DNA of 55,755 nucleotides from a bacterium (lineage in GTDB: Bacteria > Patescibacteriota > Minisyncoccia > Phycocordibacterales > UBA918): assembly GCA_030430425.1 (NCBI GenBank), contig JAUIFS010000002.1, forward strand, positions 1-55,755, given 5' to 3'. A program made the position numbers and the translations under genes. Positions 4,691 through 49,629 of the stretch are shown piece after piece; the first letter of the stretch is position 1, and each line of letters begins with the position of its first letter. The notes below the pieces were generated by a model that had not been told where the DNA came from, searched no databases, and saw only the letters and a list, made by a program, of their open reading frames with translations.

Positions 4691-5071
4691 ATGAAGGATT
4701 TTGATACATGGAATGGTCACAAGAAAGCCATCAATGACGGAGAAGGTAAATTATACTCCGAACGTGACATCTGGTGGTGTTCGCTCGGTGTGAATGTTGG
4801 ATTTGAGCAAGATGGCACAGGGAAGTCATATGAACGACCAGTGGTAGTATTGAGGGGATTTAGTCGGGCTGTGTGTCTCGTGGTTCCACTTACCACTTCA
4901 ACCAAAGAAAACAAGTATCATATCTCACTTGGGGAAGTAGATGGTAAACCAGCAGCAGCGATTATTTCTCAGGTACGGCTCATCGACACTAAACGCTTCA
5001 TCGACAAGATTGGAATGCTTGATAAGGAAAAATTTGCTGAAATAAAAAACGCCGTCAAAGGGTTACTCTAA
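4691..5071 (+). CDS. PemK/MazF-family toxin-like protein, no cognate antitoxin gene visible
   Basis: Family-typical pattern: FDTWNGHKK..., RDIWWCSLGVNVGFEQDGTGKSYERPVVVL, VVPLTTS, ISQVRLIDTKRFIDKIG. The 245 nt upstream holds only a 16-codon ORF. Confidence 0.75.
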   Translation: MKDFDTWNGHKKAINDGEGKLYSERDIWWCSLGVNVGFEQDGTGKSYERPVVVLRGFSRAVCLVVPLTTSTKENKYHISLGEVDGKPAAAIISQVRLIDTKRFIDKIGMLDKEKFAEIKNAVKGLL

Positions 5072-5484: not shown

Positions 5485-5545
5485 GAAAGCAAAAAGGTTT
5501 GCTTTCTACAACAAAACACACATCCTAGGATGTGTGTTTTGTTGT
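5485..5545 (-). terminator. Bipartite hairpin module downstream of tRNA-Tyr
   Basis: 38-nt perfect palindrome acaacaaaacacacatcctaggatgtgtgttttgttgt (5508-5545) plus a 9-bp hairpin gaaagcaaa/tttgctttc (5485-5506). The same architecture follows tRNA-Trp. Confidence 0.7.
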
Positions 5546-5552
5546 ACTTTTG

Positions 5553-5635
5553 TGCGCCGGGAGGGATTCGAACCCCCGTAGGATAAATCCGACAGGTTTA
5601 CAGCCTGTTGCAATTGACCGCTCTGCCACCGACGC
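5553..5635 (-). tRNA. tRNA-Tyr (anticodon GTA), long variable arm, no encoded CCA
   Basis: Hand-folded: acceptor GCGTCGG/CCGGCGC (one G-T pair), D arm GCAG..TGC, anticodon arm ACAGG-CTGTAAA-CCTGT, long variable arm, T arm GGGGG-TTCGAAT-CCCTC, discriminator A. Confidence 0.92.
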
Positions 5636-5725: not shown

Positions 5726-6778
5726 ATGAAATGGGGTAGACAAATACTCATTATTTTCTTCTGTGTAACAGTTTTTTTTAGTGCTGCAGCGGGAGTGCGG
5801 GCACAGGGATCACTCACGCAGCCAGTGGCAGACGACTCGTTGTATCCAGCGGGAGGCATTGTCCCGAGTGGCACCGGAGACTTTACACCAGAAGGCTATG
5901 GAAGCTGTGAGCTTGTAGAGATGGTTAATAACGTCATGCAATTTTTGATTGCGGTCAGCATCATCATTGCGGTGATTGTCTTTATTTTTGCTGGCTACCT
6001 TATGGTGTATTCGCGTGGTGACGCGGGACAGATACAGCGTGCGAAGGGACTGTTTGGGAATGTGCTTATGGGTGTTTTGCTGCTTCTTACTGCATACCTC
6101 ATCATCAATACTATCCTTGGTGTTTTACTCGGAAGTACGTCAGCAGCGCTTAACTGGAAAACTATTGAATGCTCGTATGCAAATGAGGTGGGGAAAGCGG
6201 CTGCATATAATGTAGAACTTACATACAGTGAGGTTGATTGGGTGGTGGTAGATAAATACACTGGTTTTTCAGGCTCTGGGGGCACAGGAGGTACTGGATC
6301 TAGTGGAGGTGGGAGTTGTACGGTGCCTTCTGACACAGGCAATGCTTGTCATCCAAACAATCTAAGCTGTTTTGGAAGTAAAGCTGCTGAGGCATCACAG
6401 GTTTGTAGCTTGGAAAGTGGCGGAGGAAATATAAAAGCAGTTTCAGGGACTGATAGGTGCAAGGATGGAACGTCCTTTTCCGGTGGGTTGTTCCAGGTGA
6501 ATATTTTGGCGCACTATAATAATATCCCAGGCTGTTCTAATGACTTCTTTAGAAAGAACGGTTCGGGTACGCAGGGTACTTGTTTGCGAGAAGCTGGTCC
6601 GGCTAATAATCCATACTGTGCAGTGCGCGATTGTGAAATTACAAAACCGCAGGTGTACAAAGCATGCATGAATGCAGTGTTTGATCCGAATTGGAATATT
6701 TCCTATGCGTGTAAGTTGTACAGTAGTGCCGGCTCTTTTAGAGACTGGGCTTATTCGGCTAATAAATGTGGCGTATGA
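5726..6778 (+). CDS. VirB2/TrbC-like two-helix pilin module fused to SLT-type lytic transglycosylase domain
   Basis: Signal peptide, Cys61, TM1, conserved SRGD loop, TM2, NWKTIEC, Gly/Ser linker GSGGTGGTGSSGGGS. The Cys-rich C-terminal domain has SLESGGG (catalytic Glu-Ser) and GGLFQVN (GLMQ-type) motifs. Confidence 0.8.
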   Translation: MKWGRQILIIFFCVTVFFSAAAGVRAQGSLTQPVADDSLYPAGGIVPSGTGDFTPEGYGSCELVEMVNNVMQFLIAVSIIIAVIVFIFAGYLMVYSRGDAGQIQRAKGLFGNVLMGVLLLLTAYLIINTILGVLLGSTSAALNWKTIECSYANEVGKAAAYNVELTYSEVDWVVVDKYTGFSGSGGTGGTGSSGGGSCTVPSDTGNACHPNNLSCFGSKAAEASQVCSLESGGGNIKAVSGTDRCKDGTSFSGGLFQVNILAHYNNIPGCSNDFFRKNGSGTQGTCLREAGPANNPYCAVRDCEITKPQVYKACMNAVFDPNWNISYACKLYSSAGSFRDWAYSANKCGV

Positions 6779-7275
6779 AATCAGCAAAGTACATAATACT
6801 TGCTTTTTGTGTGGTTATTATCACTGCAGCGGGAATAAAAAATATTTTCTTTTCCTCAGAAAATGATAATCAGATTGTTACCGCACTCCCAGAGTCTCCA
6901 GTGGGTGAATACATCCCCTATACTGACGCACAGGTATTCCAGAGCAAAACAGGAGTCCCACTTTCAGCAGTCGCGTTGGTTGACGATCCGTTAACAGAAC
7001 AGCTTGCAGATGATTTTTATGTGCTCACAGAAGACTCTGAGACATATGATATTTTTTACCACCAAGATAGTGGTATTGTTACTATAATGTTATACAAAGA
7101 GCCACTTGCGTTTACGCGTAGCTTAGCAGAAAGACGCTTAAAAGAAACATTGTCTTTTTCAGAGGAGGAGTTGTGTGATATGCAGGTGAGCGTTTCAACT
7201 AATGAGTATGTAAATGCGGGATATACAGGAATTAATCTCGGTTTAAGCTTTTGTGATGGTTCGATATCTCTATAA
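6775..7275 (+). CDS. membrane-anchored hypothetical protein (accessory A)
   Basis: ATG at 6775 overlaps the upstream TGA (ATGA), suggesting translational coupling. N-terminal TM YIILAFCVVIITAAGI. No recognisable domain. Confidence 0.65.
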   Translation: MKSAKYIILAFCVVIITAAGIKNIFFSSENDNQIVTALPESPVGEYIPYTDAQVFQSKTGVPLSAVALVDDPLTEQLADDFYVLTEDSETYDIFYHQDSGIVTIMLYKEPLAFTRSLAERRLKETLSFSEEELCDMQVSVSTNEYVNAGYTGINLGLSFCDGSISL

Positions 7276-7278
7276 ATT

Positions 7279-8082
7279 ATGAAATACATTTCTTTACTTT
7301 TCATACTAGCATTCGTTTTCTTTCCAGAATCAGCACTGGCACTTGACCCACTTTTTACCTGTCACGTGGGTAGTGAGTGCAACTTCTGCGACTTAGCAAA
7401 TATGATAGAAAATGTTGCTGATTGGACGACACTTGTTGCAACACTCATCGCAGTCATTGGCTTAATGTACTCAGGCTTTCGTATGTCCGCTTCACGAGGC
7501 GACGTGCAGGCGTTTACCGCTGCAAAGCAAATGTTTGGTAACATTGCCGTTGGATTAGTGATTATTATGACTGCATGGATCATTGTCGATACAATCGTAA
7601 AAGCACTTGCAGGGGGCGATTTTGGCGTATGGAACAGCTTCGACGGTGACTGTGGAGCTATGTTTGCACCAGGAAAGGCTGAAGAAGGGATTAATTTGAA
7701 TGTAGAAACGGTTGATGTTATTGAGTCACCCGAAACAGTCATATATGAATATCAGTCATCTACGGGGGTAAGCAACGTATCTTCTTTTTCTGGTAATCTT
7801 GTAACGTATGATGGACACCAATTTGATGAAAACATCATAAGTCAGGTTAATTATATTTCTCGAACATATGGTCTGCGTGTCTCAGGTGGACATCGTACAA
7901 AAGAACGTAATGCAGCGGTCGGTGGAGTCCCTAATTCACTGCACTTAAGTGGTCGTGCAGCTGATTTTGTCGGTCCACGAGAAAGAATGGAAGCAGCAGC
8001 GTCATGGGCGCGTGGCAACGGTGCAAAAGAGGTGCTTATTCATGATGCTGGTTCTGGTACCCACCTTCATGTGGGGTGGTAA
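7279..8082 (+). CDS. pilin-like module fused to M15A (YcbK/DUF882-type) zinc peptidase domain
   Basis: Signal peptide, TCHVGSECNFCDL, TM1, SRGD, TM2, WNSFDGDC. C-terminal SGGHRTKERNAAVGGVPNSLHLSGRAADF ... HLHVGW gives an H/D/H zinc-ligand pattern. Confidence 0.8.
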   Translation: MKYISLLFILAFVFFPESALALDPLFTCHVGSECNFCDLANMIENVADWTTLVATLIAVIGLMYSGFRMSASRGDVQAFTAAKQMFGNIAVGLVIIMTAWIIVDTIVKALAGGDFGVWNSFDGDCGAMFAPGKAEEGINLNVETVDVIESPETVIYEYQSSTGVSNVSSFSGNLVTYDGHQFDENIISQVNYISRTYGLRVSGGHRTKERNAAVGGVPNSLHLSGRAADFVGPRERMEAAASWARGNGAKEVLIHDAGSGTHLHVGW

Positions 8083-8094
8083 TTATTTTAATGT

Positions 8095-8994
8095 ATGCGA
8101 TACATCATTACATCAGTACTATTTTTTCTTCCCAAGATCATATTTGCACAAGGGTTTGTGACCTGTCATGAGGGTGGGAAGTGCAGTTTTTGCGAACTGA
8201 TGGCAATGGTAAATAGTATTGTTGAGTGGGTGATTATTATTGGTACATTGTGTACAGTGCTTATCCTTGCGTATGCAGGCTTCCTACTCATCGTCTCTCG
8301 GGGAGATGCAAGCGCGCTTGCGAAGGGTAAGAAGATATTTTTCCAGTGCATCATCGGTATCCTGATTATGCTTGCGTCGTGGACTATTGTAGACACAGGC
8401 ATAAAACTCTTTGCGGGAGGAGAGCTTGGTATGTGGAATGAAGTGCAGTGTGGGGCTGGGCAGTTTGCTGTTGGAGATGCTTCGGAGTATGGGATAGATC
8501 TCAGTCTGTATGAGGTTGAGGTGCTTGAAGGAGACGGCTCGACGATCACCATTCATACAGGAGGACATGTAGGTGTCGATGGAGACACAACCACTGTTAC
8601 CTCATGTGATGAGTCAGTAATGGCGTCCATGACTTTATTTGGTCACCCTGTTCGTATTCATCAAAATCTAGTACCGAGTTTGAGTCGTGTTGATGCCGCG
8701 TGGCGAAGTAGGGGTGGGGACTCGTACTATAGAGTAACCTCTGTTGGAGGGTATGCATGTCGAAAGATCGCAGGCTCAAACAAAATGTCTAACCATTCCT
8801 ATGGTGTTGCAGTCGATATAAACCCTGCACAGAATCCGCATCTAAAAAGCGAGTGTCGGACAAACATGCATGAATCTCGCTTTTATGACCTGTTTATGGC
8901 AGAGGGTTGGGGTTGGGGATGTAATTGGTCGTCTTCTAAAGATGCGATGCACTTTAGTAAAGCAGGCGGTGAAGGAGGAGATGGTAAATATTAA
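8095..8994 (+). CDS. pilin-like module fused to M15C/VanY-type peptidase domain
   Basis: Signal peptide, TCHEGGKCSFCEL, TM1, SRGD, TM2, WNEVQC. C-terminal SNHSYGVAVDINP ... GWGWGCNWSSSKDAMHFS, the pattern seen in VanY-type endolysins. Confidence 0.8.
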   Translation: MRYIITSVLFFLPKIIFAQGFVTCHEGGKCSFCELMAMVNSIVEWVIIIGTLCTVLILAYAGFLLIVSRGDASALAKGKKIFFQCIIGILIMLASWTIVDTGIKLFAGGELGMWNEVQCGAGQFAVGDASEYGIDLSLYEVEVLEGDGSTITIHTGGHVGVDGDTTTVTSCDESVMASMTLFGHPVRIHQNLVPSLSRVDAAWRSRGGDSYYRVTSVGGYACRKIAGSNKMSNHSYGVAVDINPAQNPHLKSECRTNMHESRFYDLFMAEGWGWGCNWSSSKDAMHFSKAGGEGGDGKY

Positions 8995-9010
8995 ATTATA
9001 GTGTATTGAT

Positions 9011-9652
9011 ATGCGTATACTTACAAAAATAGTATTGATAATAATACTCGTCGTGTTGGGTAGTTTTTTGCTTAAACAGTTACTTACAAAGATGGTAATT
9101 GAAAATGATCATGATCATCATGAGTATACTGATCTCCCTGTTGGGGATTCGAATGTTCCCCGAGGCTCAGTAGGTGTAATCCCGACAACGGTAGGAGTAG
9201 ATCCTGAAGACACACAACCATTTACCTCGTTGCTTACAAGAGAGCCAGACCAACAATTCTCGTCCGCGTTAGCTACGGTATATGACGATGTGTATGGTAT
9301 TTTCCCTTGCAATGTAGGCGCTGAAAAGACAAATGTTGTGATGTTTACTGCAAAAACCTCACCAACGCCAGAAGGTCCAACGTATGAGCATGCAAAACAA
9401 CAGATTGAATTATGGGAGCCACATTTACTTCCTGATATTGGATATATGATTTTTCCAGAAAGGTCTCTGCCAGAGACACCAGGACTTCTTTCTTTTGTAC
9501 AGGTAGGAGATAGTCCATACCGTCGTGCTTCGGCAATTTTTAACTCGGGAGAAGCGTATGTATATACAGGCTGGCGTTTGAACTATGTGTTTTATGCAAG
9601 TTCCTTAGAATGTCTTGTGGGGGCGATGGATCTTGTGTATGAAGCACACTAA
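9011..9652 (+). CDS. membrane-anchored hypothetical protein (accessory B)
   Basis: N-terminal TM IVLIIILVVLGSFLL, His-rich DHDHHE stretch, no recognised domain. Last gene of the 5726-9652 co-directional block. Confidence 0.65.
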   Translation: MRILTKIVLIIILVVLGSFLLKQLLTKMVIENDHDHHEYTDLPVGDSNVPRGSVGVIPTTVGVDPEDTQPFTSLLTREPDQQFSSALATVYDDVYGIFPCNVGAEKTNVVMFTAKTSPTPEGPTYEHAKQQIELWEPHLLPDIGYMIFPERSLPETPGLLSFVQVGDSPYRRASAIFNSGEAYVYTGWRLNYVFYASSLECLVGAMDLVYEAH

Positions 9653-10010: not shown

Positions 10011-10814
10011 ATGGCTAACATCGCACACCTTAACACTTCTGCCCTTGATACGGCAGCCAAGTTTTTCCGCACAATGAACAAAGCAGGAGCGGACTTCACA
10101 GGACCAATGCAGAGCGTCACCCAGCGTCGCAATCTGGTCGCTTATCTCGAAATGGGCTGTCCCAAGCTGAACAGTGACGGTGAAATCGTCACTCCGACCT
10201 TGTCTGATGGCGAAGAACTCGCCCGTCTCATCCTTGGGGACGACTATCTGTCCCCCGAAGATGTGGCAAAGGCATACGGCTGGAGCTACAACGACGAGCA
10301 ACTGGCGAATTTCGCCAATACGTTGCCCGATTTCGAAGAGCTAATGTGGCTTCGCTCCAACGGCTATATGCTGGTGGCGACCCTGCCGACCGACTGCAAC
10401 CTGCTTCAAGTTCGTGACCTCGACAACCAACTCTTCTACTCCAAGTCGGAGGGCTGGTATGCCGAGAGCAAGCACACGTTCTCTCGTGAGGACGTGGTCA
10501 AAGCTGGCGAATGGCTGATGGTTCGCAAAGAACCATATCCCAACTCTCGGAGCAAGAACTGGGGCGAGCAACGCTCGCTCCTCTCGGAAGTCGAACACGT
10601 CCCGAATGCTCCCGAAGTCGGCTACGCCGTCACTGCCTACTACAAGGTGTGTGGCGTGTATCTGCTCAAGGGCGTTTACGTTCGCACTTTCTCGGTTGAT
10701 GCTGACGGCAACCGTGTCATCGTCGGTAACTTCGACGGTGACGGTCTCGGCGTCTGCAGCTACTGGGATGACCGCCGTGACGAAGACTTCGGTGTTTCGT
10801 CCTCTCGGAAATGA
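10011..10814 (+). CDS. hypothetical protein (267 aa), compositionally atypical
   Basis: GGAGG 6 nt upstream of the ATG. No TM or signal peptide and no recognised motif. Strong C/T-ending codon preference: only 2 A-ending codons among the last 62, versus 15 of the first 60 clpB codons. Confidence 0.75.
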   Translation: MANIAHLNTSALDTAAKFFRTMNKAGADFTGPMQSVTQRRNLVAYLEMGCPKLNSDGEIVTPTLSDGEELARLILGDDYLSPEDVAKAYGWSYNDEQLANFANTLPDFEELMWLRSNGYMLVATLPTDCNLLQVRDLDNQLFYSKSEGWYAESKHTFSREDVVKAGEWLMVRKEPYPNSRSKNWGEQRSLLSEVEHVPNAPEVGYAVTAYYKVCGVYLLKGVYVRTFSVDADGNRVIVGNFDGDGLGVCSYWDDRRDEDFGVSSSRK

Positions 10815-11423: not shown

Positions 11424-11430
11424 ACTCGAG

Positions 11431-11501
11431 CGGGTCCACGAGGACTCGAACCTCGGCTGACGGTTTTGGAGACCGTAGTTCTACCACTAAACTATAGACC
11501 C
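11431..11501 (-). tRNA. tRNA-Trp (anticodon CCA), no encoded CCA end
   Basis: Hand-folded: acceptor GGGTCTA/TGGACCC, anticodon arm ACGGT-CTCCAAA-ACCGT, T arm GAGGTTCGAGTCCTC, discriminator G. Confidence 0.92.
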
Positions 11502-39306: not shown

Positions 39307-39449
39307 CTACATACTCATTATTCCTGCGTTGATCACCACTGGCGTGATATGTGATAAAATAGATATCCAAATAGTGTTACAGAACGGTCACGGAGCACAT
39401 ACTATTTGTTTATGAGCAGAAAAGGTTATTACGTTAAGATTTTTTGAGT

Positions 39450-40403
39450 ATGAAAAATATTATTATTGCTGTCGTGGGACTGACGTTGATTGCAGGGATA
39501 CTGTATTTCTTTACACAAACTGAAAGCTACAAAAAAACAGAAGATGATACTGCACGCAATGCGGATGGATCAGTACAAGTCGAAAATGGAGACGATCCGA
39601 TACCTGTTGAGCCAGACGGAGGAATAGGTGACGGCGCAGAGTCACTTGATGATTTGCTCGATGATACAAAAACAGTTATTGGTGCCTCTACAGAAGGAAA
39701 CGATATTGTTGCGTATCATTTCGGATCGGGAGATACAGAAGTGCTTTTTATTGGTGGTATTCATGCTGGGTATTCTTGGAACACGGTTTTGGTTGCATAT
39801 GAACTCATGGATTATCTTGATGCACCTAATAGAGTCCCTGAGGGGGTAAAAGTTACTGTGATTCCAACACTTAACCCTGACGGGCAGGAAGCAGTTATTG
39901 GTACTACCGGACAGTTTACTGCAGCAGCAGTTCCTGCCGATGCAGCAAAGACGATCGAGGGGCGTTTTAACGGAAACAATGTAGACCTCAACCGAAACTT
40001 TGATTGTGACTGGCAGGCAGATGGCGTATGGCAAAATAAGCAAGTCAGCGGAGGGAGTGCACCATTCTCAGAGCCTGAATCAGCAGCGTTGCGTGACTAT
40101 GTAGCTAAAAACAAACCAACTGCAGTTGTTGCCTACTACGCAGCAGCAGGTGGGGTGTATGCATCAAGTTGTCATAATGGTGTGTCAGCAGATACTTCTG
40201 CACTTACAAAGCTCTACGCAGATGCAGCAGGGTATGGAGCACATGAAGAATTTGACTTCTACGAAGTAACAGGAGACATGGTGAACTGGTTGGCAAAGCA
40301 AGGAGTGCCTGCAATTAGTGTACTGCTCTCAGACCATACAAATATTGAGTGGGACAAAAATAAAAAGGGAATTGAAGCCGTCCTTAAGCAGTACGCACAA
40401 TAA
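39450..40403 (+). CDS. M14-like carboxypeptidase homologue with degenerate active site (probable pseudo-enzyme)
   Basis: Paralogue of the next gene. Retains NPDG and VDLNRNFDC, but has HAGYSW (Ser for the zinc-ligand Glu), AYYAAAGG (Tyr for the second zinc His) and ISVLL (Leu for the catalytic Glu). N-terminal TM anchor. Confidence 0.8.
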   Translation: MKNIIIAVVGLTLIAGILYFFTQTESYKKTEDDTARNADGSVQVENGDDPIPVEPDGGIGDGAESLDDLLDDTKTVIGASTEGNDIVAYHFGSGDTEVLFIGGIHAGYSWNTVLVAYELMDYLDAPNRVPEGVKVTVIPTLNPDGQEAVIGTTGQFTAAAVPADAAKTIEGRFNGNNVDLNRNFDCDWQADGVWQNKQVSGGSAPFSEPESAALRDYVAKNKPTAVVAYYAAAGGVYASSCHNGVSADTSALTKLYADAAGYGAHEEFDFYEVTGDMVNWLAKQGVPAISVLLSDHTNIEWDKNKKGIEAVLKQYAQ

Positions 40404-40405
40404 GT

Positions 40406-41317
40406 ATGGAGATACGGAAGATACTACTCGCGGTACTTGCTGTGGGCATACTGGTGCTAGCAGCGTTGCTGTTTTTGGGTGGTTCGGAGCCAGTTTCGGA
40501 AGAAGTTGTTGAAGATATCCAAGAAGAAGTTACAGAAGAAATCGCTGCACCAGTGACACAATCTGTAATAGGTACATCGGTGGAAGGTCGCAGTATAGAA
40601 GCCTATACCTTTGGAACAGGAGAGACTGACATGCTGTTTGTCGGTGGTATCCACGGAGGATACGAATGGAATAGCGTGCTGCTTGCGTACCAATTTATCG
40701 AGGCGTACAAAGCAGTGCCCGCGCTCGTTCCTGAGCATGTGACGGTGCATATTATTCCAAGCCTTAATCCAGATGGGGTTGCGATGGTGACGGGGAAAGA
40801 TGGACGTTTTACTGAGGCTGATATTCTCTCATCGGTTGATCAGGCTACCGCTCGGTTTAATGCAAACGGAGTGGACCTTAACCGAAATTTTGACTGTAAG
40901 TGGCAGAGCGAGAGTTCATGGAGAGGGAAGTCTGTAAGTGCGGGTGCTGCACCGTTCTCTGAACCTGAAGCGGTAGCACTGCGTGACTATGTAGCTTCTA
41001 TTGCACCTGAAGCGGTAGTATTCTGGCATTCACAAGCAAACAATGTGTATGCTTCTGAGTGTGAAAATGGTGTCTTGCCAAAGACGCTTGAGGTGATGCA
41101 GGTGTATGCAGACGCTGCAGGGTATGGGGCCGTTCCTAGCTTTGACGCGTACCCAGTTACTGGGGACGCAGAAGGGTGGCTTGCATCGATTGGTATACCT
41201 GCTATTACGGTAGAAATGAAGACGCATGAAACAATTGAGTTTGCACAGAATAATGAAGGAGTAGAGGCACTCTACGCATTGTTTGCTCCCGAGGAAGAAC
41301 ATCTTGAAGTTCAGTAA
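40406..41317 (+). CDS. M14-family zinc carboxypeptidase, membrane-anchored
   Basis: GGIHGGYEW, NPDG, VDLNRNFDC, VVFWHSQ, AITVEM. All expected ligand and catalytic positions are occupied. Confidence 0.85.
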   Translation: MEIRKILLAVLAVGILVLAALLFLGGSEPVSEEVVEDIQEEVTEEIAAPVTQSVIGTSVEGRSIEAYTFGTGETDMLFVGGIHGGYEWNSVLLAYQFIEAYKAVPALVPEHVTVHIIPSLNPDGVAMVTGKDGRFTEADILSSVDQATARFNANGVDLNRNFDCKWQSESSWRGKSVSAGAAPFSEPEAVALRDYVASIAPEAVVFWHSQANNVYASECENGVLPKTLEVMQVYADAAGYGAVPSFDAYPVTGDAEGWLASIGIPAITVEMKTHETIEFAQNNEGVEALYALFAPEEEHLEVQ

Positions 41318-45377: not shown

Positions 45378-45525
45378 AATACCGTAATAGGGTACCTTAT
45401 TGGAGGCAGTGGATGCAACTACTTACTGCAGGCATAGGCTAGGTACACCATAGAGCTAGGAACCTTCTTTGTGGAGTGGTATGATGTTTTGTATTAATTA
45501 CAAACATATTTCAAAGAATGAATGT

Positions 45526-46221
45526 ATGAAAAATATGAAAGATCATATTTGGAAGATTATCGGCGTTATTGCAGTCGTTGCTATTGGAGCATCAGTAGTC
45601 TATTCAAACAGTGTTGCCAACAAGGCAAATGAGGGAATTGTATTTACGGCACATACAAAAGGAGCTGAAGATGCAACCGTAACACTTACTGAGTATAGTG
45701 ATTTTCAATGTCCTGCGTGTGGTCAGTTTGCTGCAGTTATAAAAGATGTACTTGCAACGTATCCGAATGATATAAAGTTCGAATACAAGCATTTTCCACT
45801 TGTCTCAATTCATCCATTTGCAATACCAGCTGCGAAAGCTGCTGAAGCAGCAGGGCAACAAGGAAAATTCTTTGAAATGCACGATAAACTGTTTGAAAAC
45901 CAACAAGTGTGGGCAAACAGTGTAAATCCTGCCACATATTTTACTTCTTATGCAGAAGAAATTGGTCTTGATGTAGGTCTTTTTAAGACGCATATGAAAG
46001 CATCACGTATTGAAGATAAGATTGCCGACGAGTTTAAAGAAGCACGTGAACACGGACTTACCGGCACACCGTCATTCTTTCTTAATGGAACACGTATGCA
46101 GTTTGAAACATACGAAGACTTTATAGGGCAGATTGAAGCAGCAGTTGGCGTTGATACAGCAGCAACTGCAGAAGTGGCAGACCCTGCAGCAGCTGAACCG
46201 GAGGTGAAGTTTGGGTTATAG
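45526..46221 (+). CDS. DsbA-family thiol:disulfide oxidoreductase, membrane-anchored
   Basis: TM anchor, YSDFQCPACGQF (CxxC), GTPSFFLNG cis-Pro region. Confidence 0.85.
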   Translation: MKNMKDHIWKIIGVIAVVAIGASVVYSNSVANKANEGIVFTAHTKGAEDATVTLTEYSDFQCPACGQFAAVIKDVLATYPNDIKFEYKHFPLVSIHPFAIPAAKAAEAAGQQGKFFEMHDKLFENQQVWANSVNPATYFTSYAEEIGLDVGLFKTHMKASRIEDKIADEFKEAREHGLTGTPSFFLNGTRMQFETYEDFIGQIEAAVGVDTAATAEVADPAAAEPEVKFGL

Positions 46222-46229
46222 ATAATCCA

Positions 46230-46269
46230 CACATAAAAATACCCGCATACATGCGGGTGTTTTTATGTG
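46230..46269. terminator. Bidirectional hairpin terminator (18-bp stem)
   Basis: cacataaaaatacccgca/tgcgggtgtttttatgtg. It overlaps the stop of the 46263-47201 gene. Confidence 0.8.
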
Positions 46270-47201
46270 AAATAGGTTTCAACAATGCGTGAGGTGATTC
46301 GATCAATCACATCTTTGTCCTTGTACTTTGTCTGGAGGTAGCGAAAACCAGGATTACTATTAAGCTCAATAATCGTAAAGTCAGTTGGTTTCTTGGGTGT
46401 ACCATCTATAAACACATCAATCCCTGCTGTTTTGATGGAGTTATCAATACAGAGTTGTTGTACATATGCTTTGATTGCTTTTGGAATTTTTTTACTTTCA
46501 TAATACTCAAACGTACCTTTCTGAGTTATGTGGCAAGGGATAGAGACTCCTGCATCGAGTACGTCTGTTCGTTTTTTACGTATTTTTTTGCATTCGTAAT
46601 CTACGACGGTATCGTTTACATACGTGGTTTTTTGTTCCTTGAGCAATTGTGCTATCGTTTTTTTTCCATCACCGATGATTGTAGGATATCCTTTACTGTG
46701 CAGTGCCATAACTTTCCCTTCGACGACAAGTATTCGATATTCCTTTTTAAAAAGAAGCTCTTGCACAAGTACATTTTGTTTTTTTGCGACTATTTCTGAC
46801 ACAGCGTCTATAAGTTGTCTCTTGGTGTATGCAACGGTGATGCCTTTTGCTTGAAATCCTTCCTCTGGTTTAATGATTACAGGAAATGTATCTAGAGCCG
46901 TAGCACGTGTAGTGAGTTCTTTTTTTGAATGGGTCTGTTTTGCATATATGAGAACAGAGCGAATCTTGTTGTATTTCTTTTTTTGTAACAGTGCTTCAGA
47001 GAGCAGTTTGCTCCCCATGAGCACATGTTGCCATCTGGGGACGTTCGGGTAAAACACGTTTCCATTTACCAAAAAAGATTTAGTGTGTGATTGTACGTAA
47101 TATTCTTTAAAAGGAGATCCTGTTTTTAATTCCTGTACGGTATATCCAAGTTTTTTAGCTTTATGTGCAATGAGTGTTGCTGTTGGTTTCATGTGTTGCA
47201 T
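46263..47201 (-). CDS. ATP-grasp ligase, cyanophycin-synthetase-N-terminal-like
   Basis: FPVIIKPEEGFQAKGI, EYRILVVEGKV, PTIIGDGKKTIAQLLKEQ (as in the CphA G-domain), GIDVFIDG...IIELNSNPG. Confidence 0.72.
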   Translation of the reverse strand: MQHMKPTATLIAHKAKKLGYTVQELKTGSPFKEYYVQSHTKSFLVNGNVFYPNVPRWQHVLMGSKLLSEALLQKKKYNKIRSVLIYAKQTHSKKELTTRATALDTFPVIIKPEEGFQAKGITVAYTKRQLIDAVSEIVAKKQNVLVQELLFKKEYRILVVEGKVMALHSKGYPTIIGDGKKTIAQLLKEQKTTYVNDTVVDYECKKIRKKRTDVLDAGVSIPCHITQKGTFEYYESKKIPKAIKAYVQQLCIDNSIKTAGIDVFIDGTPKKPTDFTIIELNSNPGFRYLQTKYKDKDVIDRITSRIVETYFT

Positions 47202-47204
47202 GGG

Positions 47205-48101
47205 TTATGTGTGTTTAGTGGCGAGTATGTGTGCAATCTTTGAGAATACTTTTTCGTCTGTGTGTACGGACTCAAACCCAAGCACACCAGGTGAGCGGTT
47301 TACTTCAAGCAGTACAGGAGTTGTATCTTTATGGATGATATCCACACCACCAATATCAAGGTGGGTTGCAGCGGTTGCTTCGATTGCCAGTGCACGCTCT
47401 TGTTCTGTAAGTTCATACGGAAGTGCTTTGCCACCTTGCGAAAGATTGTTAAGAAATGAGCTTTCAGAAGTTCGCCGTATTGCACCAATAATTTCTCCAA
47501 AAGCAACAATAACTCGTATGTCGAATGTATTTGGAATATATTCTTGAATAAGAAATCTGGTTTTTTCAGGAAGTGCAACAATGTATGTCTTTAGTTCATT
47601 TGCAGATTTAATTAAGTGCACTTCTGATCCCTTGCGCCCATTAGTTTTGCAAATAACCGGAAAGTGTATGTGTTCGTGTATATAGTGTGCATTATTTTCA
47701 TATGCTTCAGCACGGACAACAAATGTTTCTGGTATAGGAAGATTTGCGAGGGCAAAACGTGACATCTGCGCTATTTTGTCGCTTGCCTCATCATATATAG
47801 TGTTGATTGAGTTTATGAAGCGAATTTCTTTATGTTGTAGATATTCGTGAAGGATTCCGGTAAAGGGTGCATCAATAATATGAAATCGACTAAAAACACA
47901 TGTGTCAGAGAAACTAAGAACAGAATTATTGTGAATAAAACGTGGCTCTGACTCTGGTGGAATGTGTGCAATAACCTCACGCATGTTTATGTGGACAATA
48001 GATGTGTCGGGGAGTGCGCTAGACATGTCGTCGTATGTTTTTTTATTACAGTTTAGGAGCATGAGTTTTTCCATAGGCACGGATGATAGCAGATTTTTCA
48101 T
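47205..48101 (-). CDS. RimK-type ATP-grasp alpha-L-glutamate ligase-like protein
   Basis: FPVICKTNGRKGSEVHLI, FLIQEYIPN, DIRVIV, GGVDIIHKDTTPVLLEVNRSPG. 3-nt gap to the downstream ATP-grasp gene. Confidence 0.8.
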   Translation of the reverse strand: MKNLLSSVPMEKLMLLNCNKKTYDDMSSALPDTSIVHINMREVIAHIPPESEPRFIHNNSVLSFSDTCVFSRFHIIDAPFTGILHEYLQHKEIRFINSINTIYDEASDKIAQMSRFALANLPIPETFVVRAEAYENNAHYIHEHIHFPVICKTNGRKGSEVHLIKSANELKTYIVALPEKTRFLIQEYIPNTFDIRVIVAFGEIIGAIRRTSESSFLNNLSQGGKALPYELTEQERALAIEATAATHLDIGGVDIIHKDTTPVLLEVNRSPGVLGFESVHTDEKVFSKIAHILATKHT

Positions 48102-48267
48102 ATCAAAGCCATAGTGTTCACTATTTTGTCAAGAGTTGATTTTGATAACATGTGTGTTGTTATCACAAAAATAACCTATTTTGTAGTATGCTTTTATCTC
48201 GTTTGGGGCAGCTGGATATATTTTTCAAGAAATGGAATGTCTCAAATTTATTTTGTAAACGAACTGA

Positions 48268-49629
48268 ATGGAACAAAAAAAGAAAAAAAATATCATTGCA
48301 TATGTTATGAATTTTTCTCCACGTATGCGGGAAGATATTCGTTCATATGAAAAACGACACGATAAAGAATATCGTGTCATGCTTCTGTGGGATTCAAAGG
48401 TTAAGCGCGCAGATCGAATAAAAGGGTACGATATACTTGTGGAGTGTGATTTTTCTAAACCACACAAGCTCGCTGAAGCATTGATGCCATATCAAAATGA
48501 GCTTCTTGCTATTACCTGTCGTTCTGAGGCAAATATTTCCCGATTTGCACAAGTGTTGCCTCATGTGCCGTATCTACGATCGGCAACAACTGAATCGTTG
48601 CGTTGGGCAACTGATAAATATGAAATGCGCAAGCGCCTGAAGCTTTTTGATGCCAAAAATACCCCTCGGTTTACATGGATTAAAAATAATACGCAAAAAG
48701 AGCGTGCGCGTGTAGTGGAAAAGGTTCAATTTCCCATGATTGTGAAGCCGGCAAACTTGGCAGGAAGTCTTTTTGTGACTATCTGTTATCACGAAGATGA
48801 GCTTGAAAAAACATTACGCACACTCTTCCGTCGTTTAAAAAGGGCGTATGAAAATGATACACGCACAGAAGTTCCAAAAATTATTGCTGAAGAATATATG
48901 GAGGGTGACCTGTACTCCATTGACTCGTACGTTAATGGTCGGGGAGATGTGTATCATTGCCCACTGGTGCGACAGAAGACTGCGCGAGAGATTGGGCATG
49001 ATGATTTTTATAATTATCTTCAGATTACGCCAACTGCCCTTAAGCAAGCAACTGTTGAGAAAGCTCGTGCAGTAGCAGAAACAGCAGTACATGCATTAGG
49101 GTTGCGTAATACTACCGCTCATGTGGAACTTATGAAGGTGGATGACGATTGGAAAGTAATTGAGATAGGTCCTCGGTGCGGAGGTGCACGTGATGTGTTG
49201 CATAAACTCAGTTGTGACATTAATCATACGATGAATGATATTGCGGTGCGGATTCCTCGGAAGCCGGTGATTCCAAAGAAGTGTAAAGGATACGCGGCAT
49301 ACATGAAGTATTTTGCATCAAAGGAAGGAATTATTTCTGAAACAAAGGGTATAAAGAAGATTGAAAGCTTAGATTCCTTTCATAAGATTACGGTCAATAA
49401 AAAAGTAGGGGACCGGTCAGTCTTTGCGCGAAATGGTGGTCGGTCAGTCTTTAACTTGTTTTTATACAATGAGGACCGCTCAAAACTGCTGGCTGATATC
49501 CGGCGCATTGAACAGATGGTAGATGTAAAAGTAGGGAATGGCAGAGTGTCCACAGGCGTTGCAAAGAAAAGTCTTAAGAAGAAAGTGGCTTCGAAGAAGG
49601 TTGCAAAGAAGACAGTAAAAAAGAAGTAG
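48268..49629 (+). CDS. ATP-grasp ligase (L-amino-acid-ligase-like) with Lys-rich tail
   Basis: FPMIVKPANLAGSLFV, IAEEYMEGDLYSIDSYV, HVELMKVDDDWKVIEIGPRCGG. C-terminal KKSLKKKVASKKVAKKTVKKK. Confidence 0.78.
   Translation: MEQKKKKNIIAYVMNFSPRMREDIRSYEKRHDKEYRVMLLWDSKVKRADRIKGYDILVECDFSKPHKLAEALMPYQNELLAITCRSEANISRFAQVLPHVPYLRSATTESLRWATDKYEMRKRLKLFDAKNTPRFTWIKNNTQKERARVVEKVQFPMIVKPANLAGSLFVTICYHEDELEKTLRTLFRRLKRAYENDTRTEVPKIIAEEYMEGDLYSIDSYVNGRGDVYHCPLVRQKTAREIGHDDFYNYLQITPTALKQATVEKARAVAETAVHALGLRNTTAHVELMKVDDDWKVIEIGPRCGGARDVLHKLSCDINHTMNDIAVRIPRKPVIPKKCKGYAAYMKYFASKEGIISETKGIKKIESLDSFHKITVNKKVGDRSVFARNGGRSVFNLFLYNEDRSKLLADIRRIEQMVDVKVGNGRVSTGVAKKSLKKKVASKKVAKKTVKKK

Follow-up and report, generated by a model that had tools for sequence, protein, structure and literature searches.

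What might an operon be for in which three pilin-like membrane modules are each fused to a different predicted peptidoglycan hydrolase? Such an operon lies at positions 5726-9652 of contig JAUIFS010000002.1 (GenBank assembly GCA_030430425.1; Patescibacteriota, UBA918), the 55,755-nt stretch of DNA analysed here and referred to as the window. Its five genes (genes 1 to 5; Table 1) are co-directional and tightly packed, as the original prediction, made from the sequence, had described: the stop codon of gene 1 and the start codon of gene 2 overlap in an ATGA read at 6775-6778, and the coordinates leave 3, 12 and 16 nt between genes 2 and 3, 3 and 4, and 4 and 5, respectively. The start of gene 2 at 6775 is also that of a public gene call (P0169, 166 aa). 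Our analysis identifies the membrane module of genes 1, 3 and 4 as a member of the VirB2-type pilin family and no plain signal anchor, and we propose, with a confidence that is moderate and evenly balanced, that these modular pilins are the VirB1/PrgK-like muralytic arm of the Patescibacterial VirB2-pilus/type IV secretion system (T4SS).

A VirB2-type pilin module in genes 1, 3 and 4

The N-terminal modules of genes 1, 3 and 4 align over ~110 residues, in which the SRGD motif, a Lys and the flanking Cys are invariant. BLASTP comparisons between the three proteins (3e-33 for genes 3 and 4, 5e-18 for genes 1 and 4, 5e-15 for genes 1 and 3) confirm that the modules are paralogous, and the paralogous region reaches ~25 aa past the second helix. 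In the hydropathy profiles of all three proteins, SRGD sits between two hydrophobic helices, which a signal peptide precedes. Genes 3 and 4 score 35.2 and 27.8 bits against the Pfam model T4SS_pilin (PF18895), above its threshold of 26.6 bits, and gene 3 falls just under the threshold of the TrbC/VirB2 model (PF04956) with 25.4 bits. Full-length homologues of gene 1 carry PF18895.

A word-indexed search with the N-module profile returned 4 proteins only, and an exhaustive hidden Markov model (HMM) search was needed to recover the family. With a profile built from the three modules, this search matched 27,773 cluster representatives at E <= 1e-3, of which 3,274 reached E <= 1e-10. Among the best 150 relatives of the module, 148 match T4SS_pilin and 56 match TrbC/VirB2 (best E 1e-42). 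The AlphaFold2 (AF2) model of gene 1 contains a helical hairpin (residues 59-95 and 100-134), and its top match in the PDB is the conjugation-pilus subunit 8dfu of Aeropyrum pernix (probability 0.91, TM 0.67 on the target), which is not significant alone because E = 2.1. It is on the profile matches, the relatives, the hydropathy and the hairpin model together that we place the module in the VirB2-type pilin family, as had been predicted; the profile searches came out opposite to a set of signal anchors unrelated to VirB2/TrbC. In gene 1, C61 before helix 1 and C149 after helix 2 are nearly invariant or invariant across homologues. These flanking Cys would share the outer side of the membrane, and we infer a disulfide staple that would join both ends of the hairpin.

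Domain matches, for gene 1 those of its relatives, support the claim that the pilin modules carry three different muralytic domain types. The Peptidase_M15_4 domain of gene 4 has complete zinc ligands (H234-x6-D241, H286) and the motifs SNHSYGVAVD and DAMHF, in agreement with the M15C/VanY-type peptidase first read from the sequence, and the gene has orthologues in two related loci, L037 (48% identity) and L035 (41%). The zinc ligands of gene 3 are likewise complete (H222-x6-D229, H262-x-H264); its identification as an M15 zinc peptidase stands, but the Pfam model that it matches is M15_3 rather than that of the predicted M15A/YcbK type (YcbK/DUF882). The M15_3 domain of gene 3 resembles phage endolysin and spike families.

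The C-terminal domain of gene 1 is Cys-rich (~12 Cys) and is modelled by AF2 with a predicted local distance difference test score (pLDDT) of ~90. Full-length homologues are found at 80%, 58% and ~50% identity. Residues E230, S231, Q257 and N259 show no variation among 15 homologues, the GLFQxN motif is conserved, and E230 forms the end of a predicted helix (210-231). Nine of 14 members of the domain family (43-82% identity) match SLT_3 (PF18896, 'Lysozyme like domain'; best 6.4e-6) and two of 14 match SLT; the orthologous first gene of L037 carries a canonical SLT domain (PF01464). The family shares with SLT_3 and SLT the Glu-Ser catalytic dyad and the GLxQ motif. We describe the domain as 'lysozyme-like, SLT_3-related' and probably glycan-cleaving, a label that comes from the relatives and the invariant Glu-Ser, not from a match of gene 1 itself. 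The original assignment to SLT-type lytic transglycosylases therefore holds for the conserved motifs and the relatives, but no canonical SLT domain is detectable in gene 1 and the fold search did not confirm one. PDB sequence matches of the domain proved to be spurious nanobodies, hit through its 'ESGGG' motif.

Spread of the fusions and their partner genes

A profile scan with the C-terminal domain of gene 1, over one genome per GTDB species, yielded 31 loci, and all open reading frames (ORFs) in them were annotated locally by jackhmmer. These loci are labelled Kaiserbacteria, Parcubacteria, Paceibacteria, Moraniibacteria, Doudnabacteria and 'Saccharibacteria'; a few of the labels are probably wrong. 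The arrangement seen in this window is no one-off: it is a conserved chromosomal module across many Candidate Phyla Radiation (CPR) lineages, and fusions are common among the closest pilin relatives. In L001 and L037 the operon is syntenic at a ClpB...MiaA-AhpC-ParB housekeeping locus at ~50% identity, and L035 has a related form. The gene order in L001-L003, where the gene 1 type is 48% identical, is ClpB, gene 1 type, gene 2 type, a pilin fusion (306 aa) and pilin+VanY (307 aa), with MiaA, AhpC and ParB farther on. L037 has the same five-gene order as the window (pilin+SLT, gene 2 type, pilin fusion, pilin+M15_4, gene 5 type), followed by MiaA-AhpC, and in L035, a Kaiserbacteria metagenome-assembled genome, the gene 1 and gene 2 types precede pilin+M15_4, the gene 5 type and a pilin fusion, then MiaA, ParB and RelA.

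Downstream of the gene 1-gene 2 pair there are usually either further long pilin fusions (M15, VanY, NlpC/P60) or arrays of short pilins. In 7 of the 31 genomes (L010, L012, L014, L016, L018, L019, L022) the pair heads arrays of 3-5 unfused pilins of 93-170 aa. The downstream fusion in L005, L006 and L023 is pilin+NlpC/P60, and a gene 5 homologue follows it. A C-terminal extension of 90 aa or more is found in 81 of the best 150 relatives of the module; 43 are pilin-only and 22 are multi-module, counts that cannot be extrapolated to the whole pilin family because the sample is biased to relatives of the fused modules. The recognisable extension domains in this sample are M15_3 (18), SLT (5), SLT_3 (5), VanY (5), M15_2 (5), M15_4 (4), NlpC/P60 (1) and SLT_2 (1).

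Gene 2 encodes a single-pass membrane or secreted protein. Its conserved extracytoplasmic domain spans ~100 aa, and the family alignment shows two invariant Cys there, C134 and C160, in the pattern AC...GLSFCP. A homologue lies directly downstream of a gene 1-type gene in 31 of 31 genome loci and also in L001-L003 and L035-L037. Searches of the gene 2 family against Pfam and the PDB gave no match other than transmembrane-helix noise, and an AF2 model built from a 2-sequence alignment (pLDDT 46) was unusable. By this gene order, gene 2 is the obligatory partner of gene 1, and it defines a putative new protein family. Gene 5 also encodes a single-pass membrane or secreted protein, and its family has no Pfam, NCBIfam or PHROG match. 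Its homologues include L037_g5 (38%) and L035_g4 (33%) as well as those after the pilin-NlpC/P60 fusions of L005, L006 and L023; in related genomes they recur downstream of pilin fusions of the M15_4 or NlpC/P60 type.

Several relatives depart from these layouts. In L031 (5841-11013) two gene 1-gene 2 pairs stand in tandem, and the second gene 1-type protein, of 700 aa, has an extra Calx-beta domain. A large serine recombinase (588 aa, Resolvase + Recombinase) lies directly upstream of the operon in L035 (8150-9916), in the position that ClpB takes in the window. Some relatives of the module (P0023 of 820 aa, P0091 of 1147 aa, P0026, P0027, P0056, P0063 and others) comprise 5-11 tandem pilin modules in one predicted protein; these 'poly-pilins' may be genuine polyproteins, or else arrays that were merged by the gene calls. 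Four array members have a reversed architecture, with a large Cys-rich extracellular N-terminal domain followed by one or two C-terminal pilin modules (Table 1), which suggests that the pilin module serves generally as a scaffold for display, at either terminus. P0001 (169 aa, on a 1545-nt public contig) matches the N-terminal part of gene 3 with 100% identity; as a truncated copy, it probably comes from a fragmented assembly of the same organism. An operon of the CPR type (gene 1-gene 2-pilin) also occurs on contigs labelled as non-CPR: 'Bdellovibrionales' (L010, L012, L019, L023, L029), 'Gammaproteobacteria' (L015, L034), 'Patiriisocius' (L013) and 'Acidimicrobiales' (P0016). These labels probably reflect mis-binning or mislabelling; if they were real, the module would extend beyond CPR.

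Candidate roles of the modular pilins

Opening the wall for a secretion apparatus is the task of VirB1 in diderms and of the membrane-anchored PrgK, TraG and CwlT in Gram-positive T4SSs. If the modular pilins serve the same end, Sec would export each fusion protein and its two-helix hairpin would insert with both ends outside the membrane, where the flanking Cys would probably staple them together. A flexible Gly/Ser/Thr linker would hold an outward-facing peptidoglycan hydrolase, an orientation that agrees with the original prediction as a predicted topology, and the length of these linkers suggests enzymes on a leash. Gene 1 is predicted to supply a lysozyme-like glycan cleaver, and genes 3 and 4 zinc peptidases of the M15_3 and the M15_4/VanY-like type, respectively. 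The pilin module would steer these enzymes to the place of pilin subunit handling, and the fusions might themselves join the filament as minor subunits. Both glycan strands and peptide stems would then be cleaved at the very point where the appendage has to cross a wall, be it the cell's own or that of the host. The single-pass extracytoplasmic partners encoded by genes 2 and 5 would most likely be cognate regulators, inhibitors or assembly factors.

Two lines of evidence suggest that the fusions are coupled to a pilus or T4SS. The T4SS cluster of Southlakia epibionticum contains SEML1_0006 (two lysozyme-like domains and a Cys peptidase), SEML1_0007 (M15B-like) and six PF18895 pilins; the same enzyme classes that stand unfused beside pilins there are fused to them here, which argues, as a Rosetta stone, for a functional coupling of pilin and hydrolase. 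The second line is that the gene 1-gene 2 pair heads short-pilin arrays in other CPR genomes, and the type of array that it heads in 7 of 31 genomes is the type reported to be essential in S. epibionticum (PMC10633639, PMC12102498). The fusions also recur with other wall hydrolases (NlpC/P60, VanY, M15_2).

Arrays of VirB2-like pilins in Patescibacteria have been described before: 441 arrays of 2-11 genes with ~25% mutual identity are sometimes interrupted by a non-pilin gene (PMC12102498), and the epibiotic growth of S. epibionticum requires both its six-pilin array and its T4SS (PMC10633639). A 2025 review regards the Patescibacteria systems as unique among monoderms in their potential for conjugative pili (PMC12857230). 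The operon resembles published arrays such as SEML1_0014-0019 and the 'Sec-secreted array' of Nanosynbacter lyticus TM7x (PMC12102498, PMC10633639, PMC7427843) in its pilin family, its signal peptide and hairpin, its phylum and its tandem paralogues of ~25-38% identity, sometimes interrupted, and in several relatives the gene 1-gene 2 pair itself heads such arrays. It differs from them in that the published pilins are short (~90-180 aa) and most often adjoin virB4, whereas here each module is extended by 100-200 aa of enzyme domain, the locus lies well away from a T4SS ATPase and gene 2 is present as an obligatory partner. We found no description of hydrolase-fused pilin modules in the literature searched. 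The original statement that no such pilin-hydrolase system was known to its author agrees with this. Because VirB2-like arrays are published and essential in S. epibionticum (PMC12102498, PMC10633639), the new element is the fusion together with its obligatory partner gene, rather than the pilins themselves.

Comparison with better known systems yields functional and conceptual parallels. PrgK (pCF10), TraG (pIP501) and CwlT (ICEBs1) are VirB1-like hydrolases of Gram-positive T4SSs with an N-terminal transmembrane anchor and both glycan-cleaving and peptidase domains. Like the operon, they belong to monoderm systems, are membrane-tethered and combine glycan- and peptide-cutting activities for crossing the wall. 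Unlike it, they concatenate their domains in one polypeptide behind a simple transmembrane anchor, use CHAP/LytM peptidases and are encoded inside the T4SS cluster; the operon has three one-domain proteins, a pilin-family hairpin and M15 peptidases, and lies outside any T4SS cluster, which leaves the resemblance functional only. A pilin module with a grafted functional domain is also known from the modular type IV pilins PilB and PilC of Streptococcus sanguinis. These are alike in concept, each being a polymerisable pilin module with a C-terminal globular domain that is displayed as a minor subunit, but the type IV pili superfamily and its machinery are unrelated to the VirB2 type, and the grafts are adhesive rather than peptidoglycan hydrolases.

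The interest of the proposed role lies in a gap that it would fill. Most Patescibacteria genomes with VirB2 lack a recognisable VirB1, and other glycosidases may substitute for it (PMC12102498). Pilin-hydrolase fusions, conserved in many CPR lineages, are a concrete candidate for this missing wall-opening function. The T4SS and a VirB2-like array are essential for epibiotic life in the one patescibacterium tested genetically, and such pili are unexpected in monoderms. Saccharibacteria, which have become genetically tractable, allow a direct test of the hypothesis.

Several results weigh against a wall-opening role tied to a pilus. The main counter-evidence is that T4SS genes were not found near the loci and that the neighbourhood is one of housekeeping genes. 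Among 39 scanned ORFs of the window (30 larger ORFs outside the operon, with the operon genes and their immediate neighbours), none encodes VirB3, VirB4, VirB6, VirD4 or PilB, which bears out the original statement that VirB4/VirD4 and PilB are missing from the window. Around the related loci (+-10 kb), the large Walker-A ORFs encode ClpB, IF-2 and RecG, and none of them encodes VirB4, VirB6 or VirD4. A local profile search detected no further pilin-module genes in the window, and the operon itself has no short pilin that could be the major subunit. Filament incorporation is speculative, because a globular domain of 100-200 aa on each subunit is hard to fit into a dense helical packing.

The remaining points concern gene 1. 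Its module stays below the Pfam thresholds (19.8 bits for T4SS_pilin, 20 bits for TrbC). Its C-terminal domain has no Pfam family match of its own (none at E <= 1) and no PDB family by sequence; it thus matches neither the SLT_3 nor the SLT model, from which it also differs in being unusually Cys-rich. Foldseek searches of the full-length model against PDB and BFVD returned no lysozyme or SLT fold; a query with the domain only might differ. A c-type lysozyme identity, raised by a weak PDB profile match (2fbd, E = 0.76), was dropped because the hhalign comparison with hen lysozyme (HEWL) was not significant (probability 0.4%).

The missing T4SS genes and the housekeeping neighbourhood keep alive a first rival, which we consider rather unlikely: the genes would encode housekeeping membrane-tethered autolysins, in which the hairpin is an anchor only, the cell's own peptidoglycan is remodelled for growth, division or turnover, and the products of genes 2 and 5 regulate autolysis with no link to a T4SS or pilus. 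The conserved neighbourhood (ClpB, MiaA, AhpC, ParB, RelA, TopA) away from a T4SS ATPase, the vertical conservation across diverged CPR lineages and the lack of a short pilin in the window operon are all in keeping with such autolysins. They would leave unexplained why the anchor is a specific pilin module, with its SRGD/SxGN loop and flanking Cys, that scores at the profile level of bona fide array pilins, and why the gene 1-gene 2 pair directly heads short-pilin arrays in the 7 genomes named above. The unfused occurrence of the same enzyme classes inside the essential S. epibionticum T4SS cluster speaks against them as well.

The original prediction had also raised a device aimed at the host wall. 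As a muralytic weapon, the enzymes would sit on a VirB2-type filament, or be shed from it, at the contact of epibiont and host and breach the host wall, with genes 2 and 5 encoding cognate immunity proteins; this we regard as unlikely. The strict adjacency of genes 1 and 2 at every locus, the position of gene 5 after peptidase fusions and the complementary glycan- and peptide-cutting set would suit a weapon, as would the extensive swapping of C-terminal domains on a fixed pilin scaffold (SLT versus SLT_3-like, M15 subtypes, NlpC/P60), which is typical of polymorphic effector systems. Cultivated CPR bacteria are epibionts in which T4SS and pilins are essential (PMC10633639). Yet gene 3 has no adjacent partner, gene 5 comes after peptidases of two unrelated types (M15_4 and NlpC/P60), a pattern atypical of a specific immunity protein, and gene 2 matches no family, be it inhibitor, immunity or other. 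The locus is vertically conserved, neither variable nor island-like, and filament display is speculative. In a wider form, which we likewise hold to be doubtful, VirB2-type pilins would be a general display scaffold, hydrolase pilins at the tip or along the T4SS pilus would drill host peptidoglycan, and the products of genes 2 and 5 would provide immunity or gating. If it were true, the operon would encode a filament-displayed muralytic toolkit without a described counterpart in T4SS biology, and enzymes that are filament-displayed and directed at the host wall would amount to a new host-access mechanism for ultrasmall epibionts.

C-terminal trimming of a VirB2-family propilin is established for TrbC of RP4. 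By analogy with this TrbC/VirB2 propilin processing, the fusions could be pro-pilin precursors whose enzyme domain is cleaved off at pilin maturation, releasing one soluble hydrolase per pilin. A low-complexity linker does separate module and enzyme in all three proteins, but the operon showed neither a conserved cleavage motif nor a dedicated gene for a TraF-like peptidase, and the paralogy of ~25 aa past helix 2 points to a structured neck and not to a site of cleavage, which makes such precursors quite improbable. A prophage or mobile-element lysis cassette, with holin-like two-transmembrane segments fused to endolysins and integrated by a tRNA gene, might be read from the tRNA-Tyr immediately upstream, the nearby PemK toxin gene, the likeness of the M15 domains to phage endolysin families and the serine recombinase upstream in L035, but the synteny, with diverged genomes sharing the same housekeeping position, all but refutes it. 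The PHROG matches in the window are to the M15 enzyme domains only (endolysin families), the N-modules match pilin rather than holin profiles, and the scanned window ORFs include no phage structural, replication or packaging genes.

Coordinates and surroundings of the operon

Table 1. Operon features in the window, and reversed-architecture pilin-module proteins in related loci (nt, nucleotides; aa, residues).
Feature	Position	Strand	Remarks
Gene 1	5726-6778	+	350 aa ORF
Gene 1, signal peptide	aa 1-~27	+	
Gene 1, pilin module	aa ~59-134, nt 5900-6127	+	hydropathy, AF2 hairpin
Gene 1, SRGD loop	nt 6011-6022	+	
Gene 1, Gly/Ser linker	between pilin module and lysozyme-like domain	+	
Gene 1, Cys-rich lysozyme-like domain	aa ~195-350, nt 6308-6775	+	family matches SLT_3
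Gene 1, Glu230-Ser231 dyad in LESGGG	nt 6410-6427	+	
Gene 1, GGLFQVN	nt 6482-6502	+	
Gene 2	6775-7275	+	166 aa ORF; alternative in-frame ATG at 6766 gives 169 aa
Gene 3	7279-8082	+	267 aa ORF
Gene 3, pilin module	nt ~7381-7614, SRGD 7492-7503	+	preceded by signal peptide and C-x5-C-x2-C motif
Gene 3, Peptidase_M15_3 domain	nt 7843-8067	+	39.3 bits (threshold 23.2); joined by linker
Gene 4	8095-8994	+	299 aa ORF
Gene 4, pilin module	nt ~8185-8412, SRGD 8296-8307	+	preceded by signal peptide and Cys motif
Gene 4, Peptidase_M15_4 (VanY-like) domain	nt 8716-8958	+	64.2 bits (threshold 25); joined by linker
Gene 5	9011-9652	+	213 aa ORF
Reversed-architecture member	L022:7541-9319		
Reversed-architecture member	L036:12846-13961		
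Reversed-architecture member	L018:11082-11927		
Reversed-architecture member	L027:10890-12359		

The scanned ORFs outside the operon encode housekeeping proteins (ClpB, MiaA, AhpC, ParB, RelA/SpoT, TopA, DprA, SerRS, Dus, a PBP5-like carboxypeptidase, DnaX, ClpC, RNR, M14 peptidases, a DEAD helicase, a DsbA-like protein, ATP-grasp enzymes and glycosidases). Scans for promoters and terminators gave no signal enriched over shuffled sequences. The tRNA-Tyr gene (5552-5635, minus strand) lies on the opposite strand with its end 90 nt upstream of gene 1. A strong 18-bp hairpin is found at 5507-5546, and a gene for a PemK/MazF-type toxin (4691-5071, plus strand; Pfam 53.5 bits) stands just upstream of the tRNA-Tyr and the operon; no antitoxin was identified for it. 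On the other side, a 267-aa ORF without a family match (10011-10814, plus strand) separates the operon from tRNA-Trp (11430-11501), in a stretch with a G+C content of 0.49 compared with ~0.43 in its neighbours.

Farther along the window, a DsbA-like thioredoxin gene (45469-46221, plus strand) would be in keeping with the oxidation that the many extracytoplasmic Cys in gene 1, gene 2 and the pilin modules need. Two adjacent genes for M14 zinc carboxypeptidases and a three-gene cluster of ATP-grasp (RimK/Ddl-like) enzymes lie at 39444-41317 and 46263-49629; they may have a role in peptide ligation or trimming.

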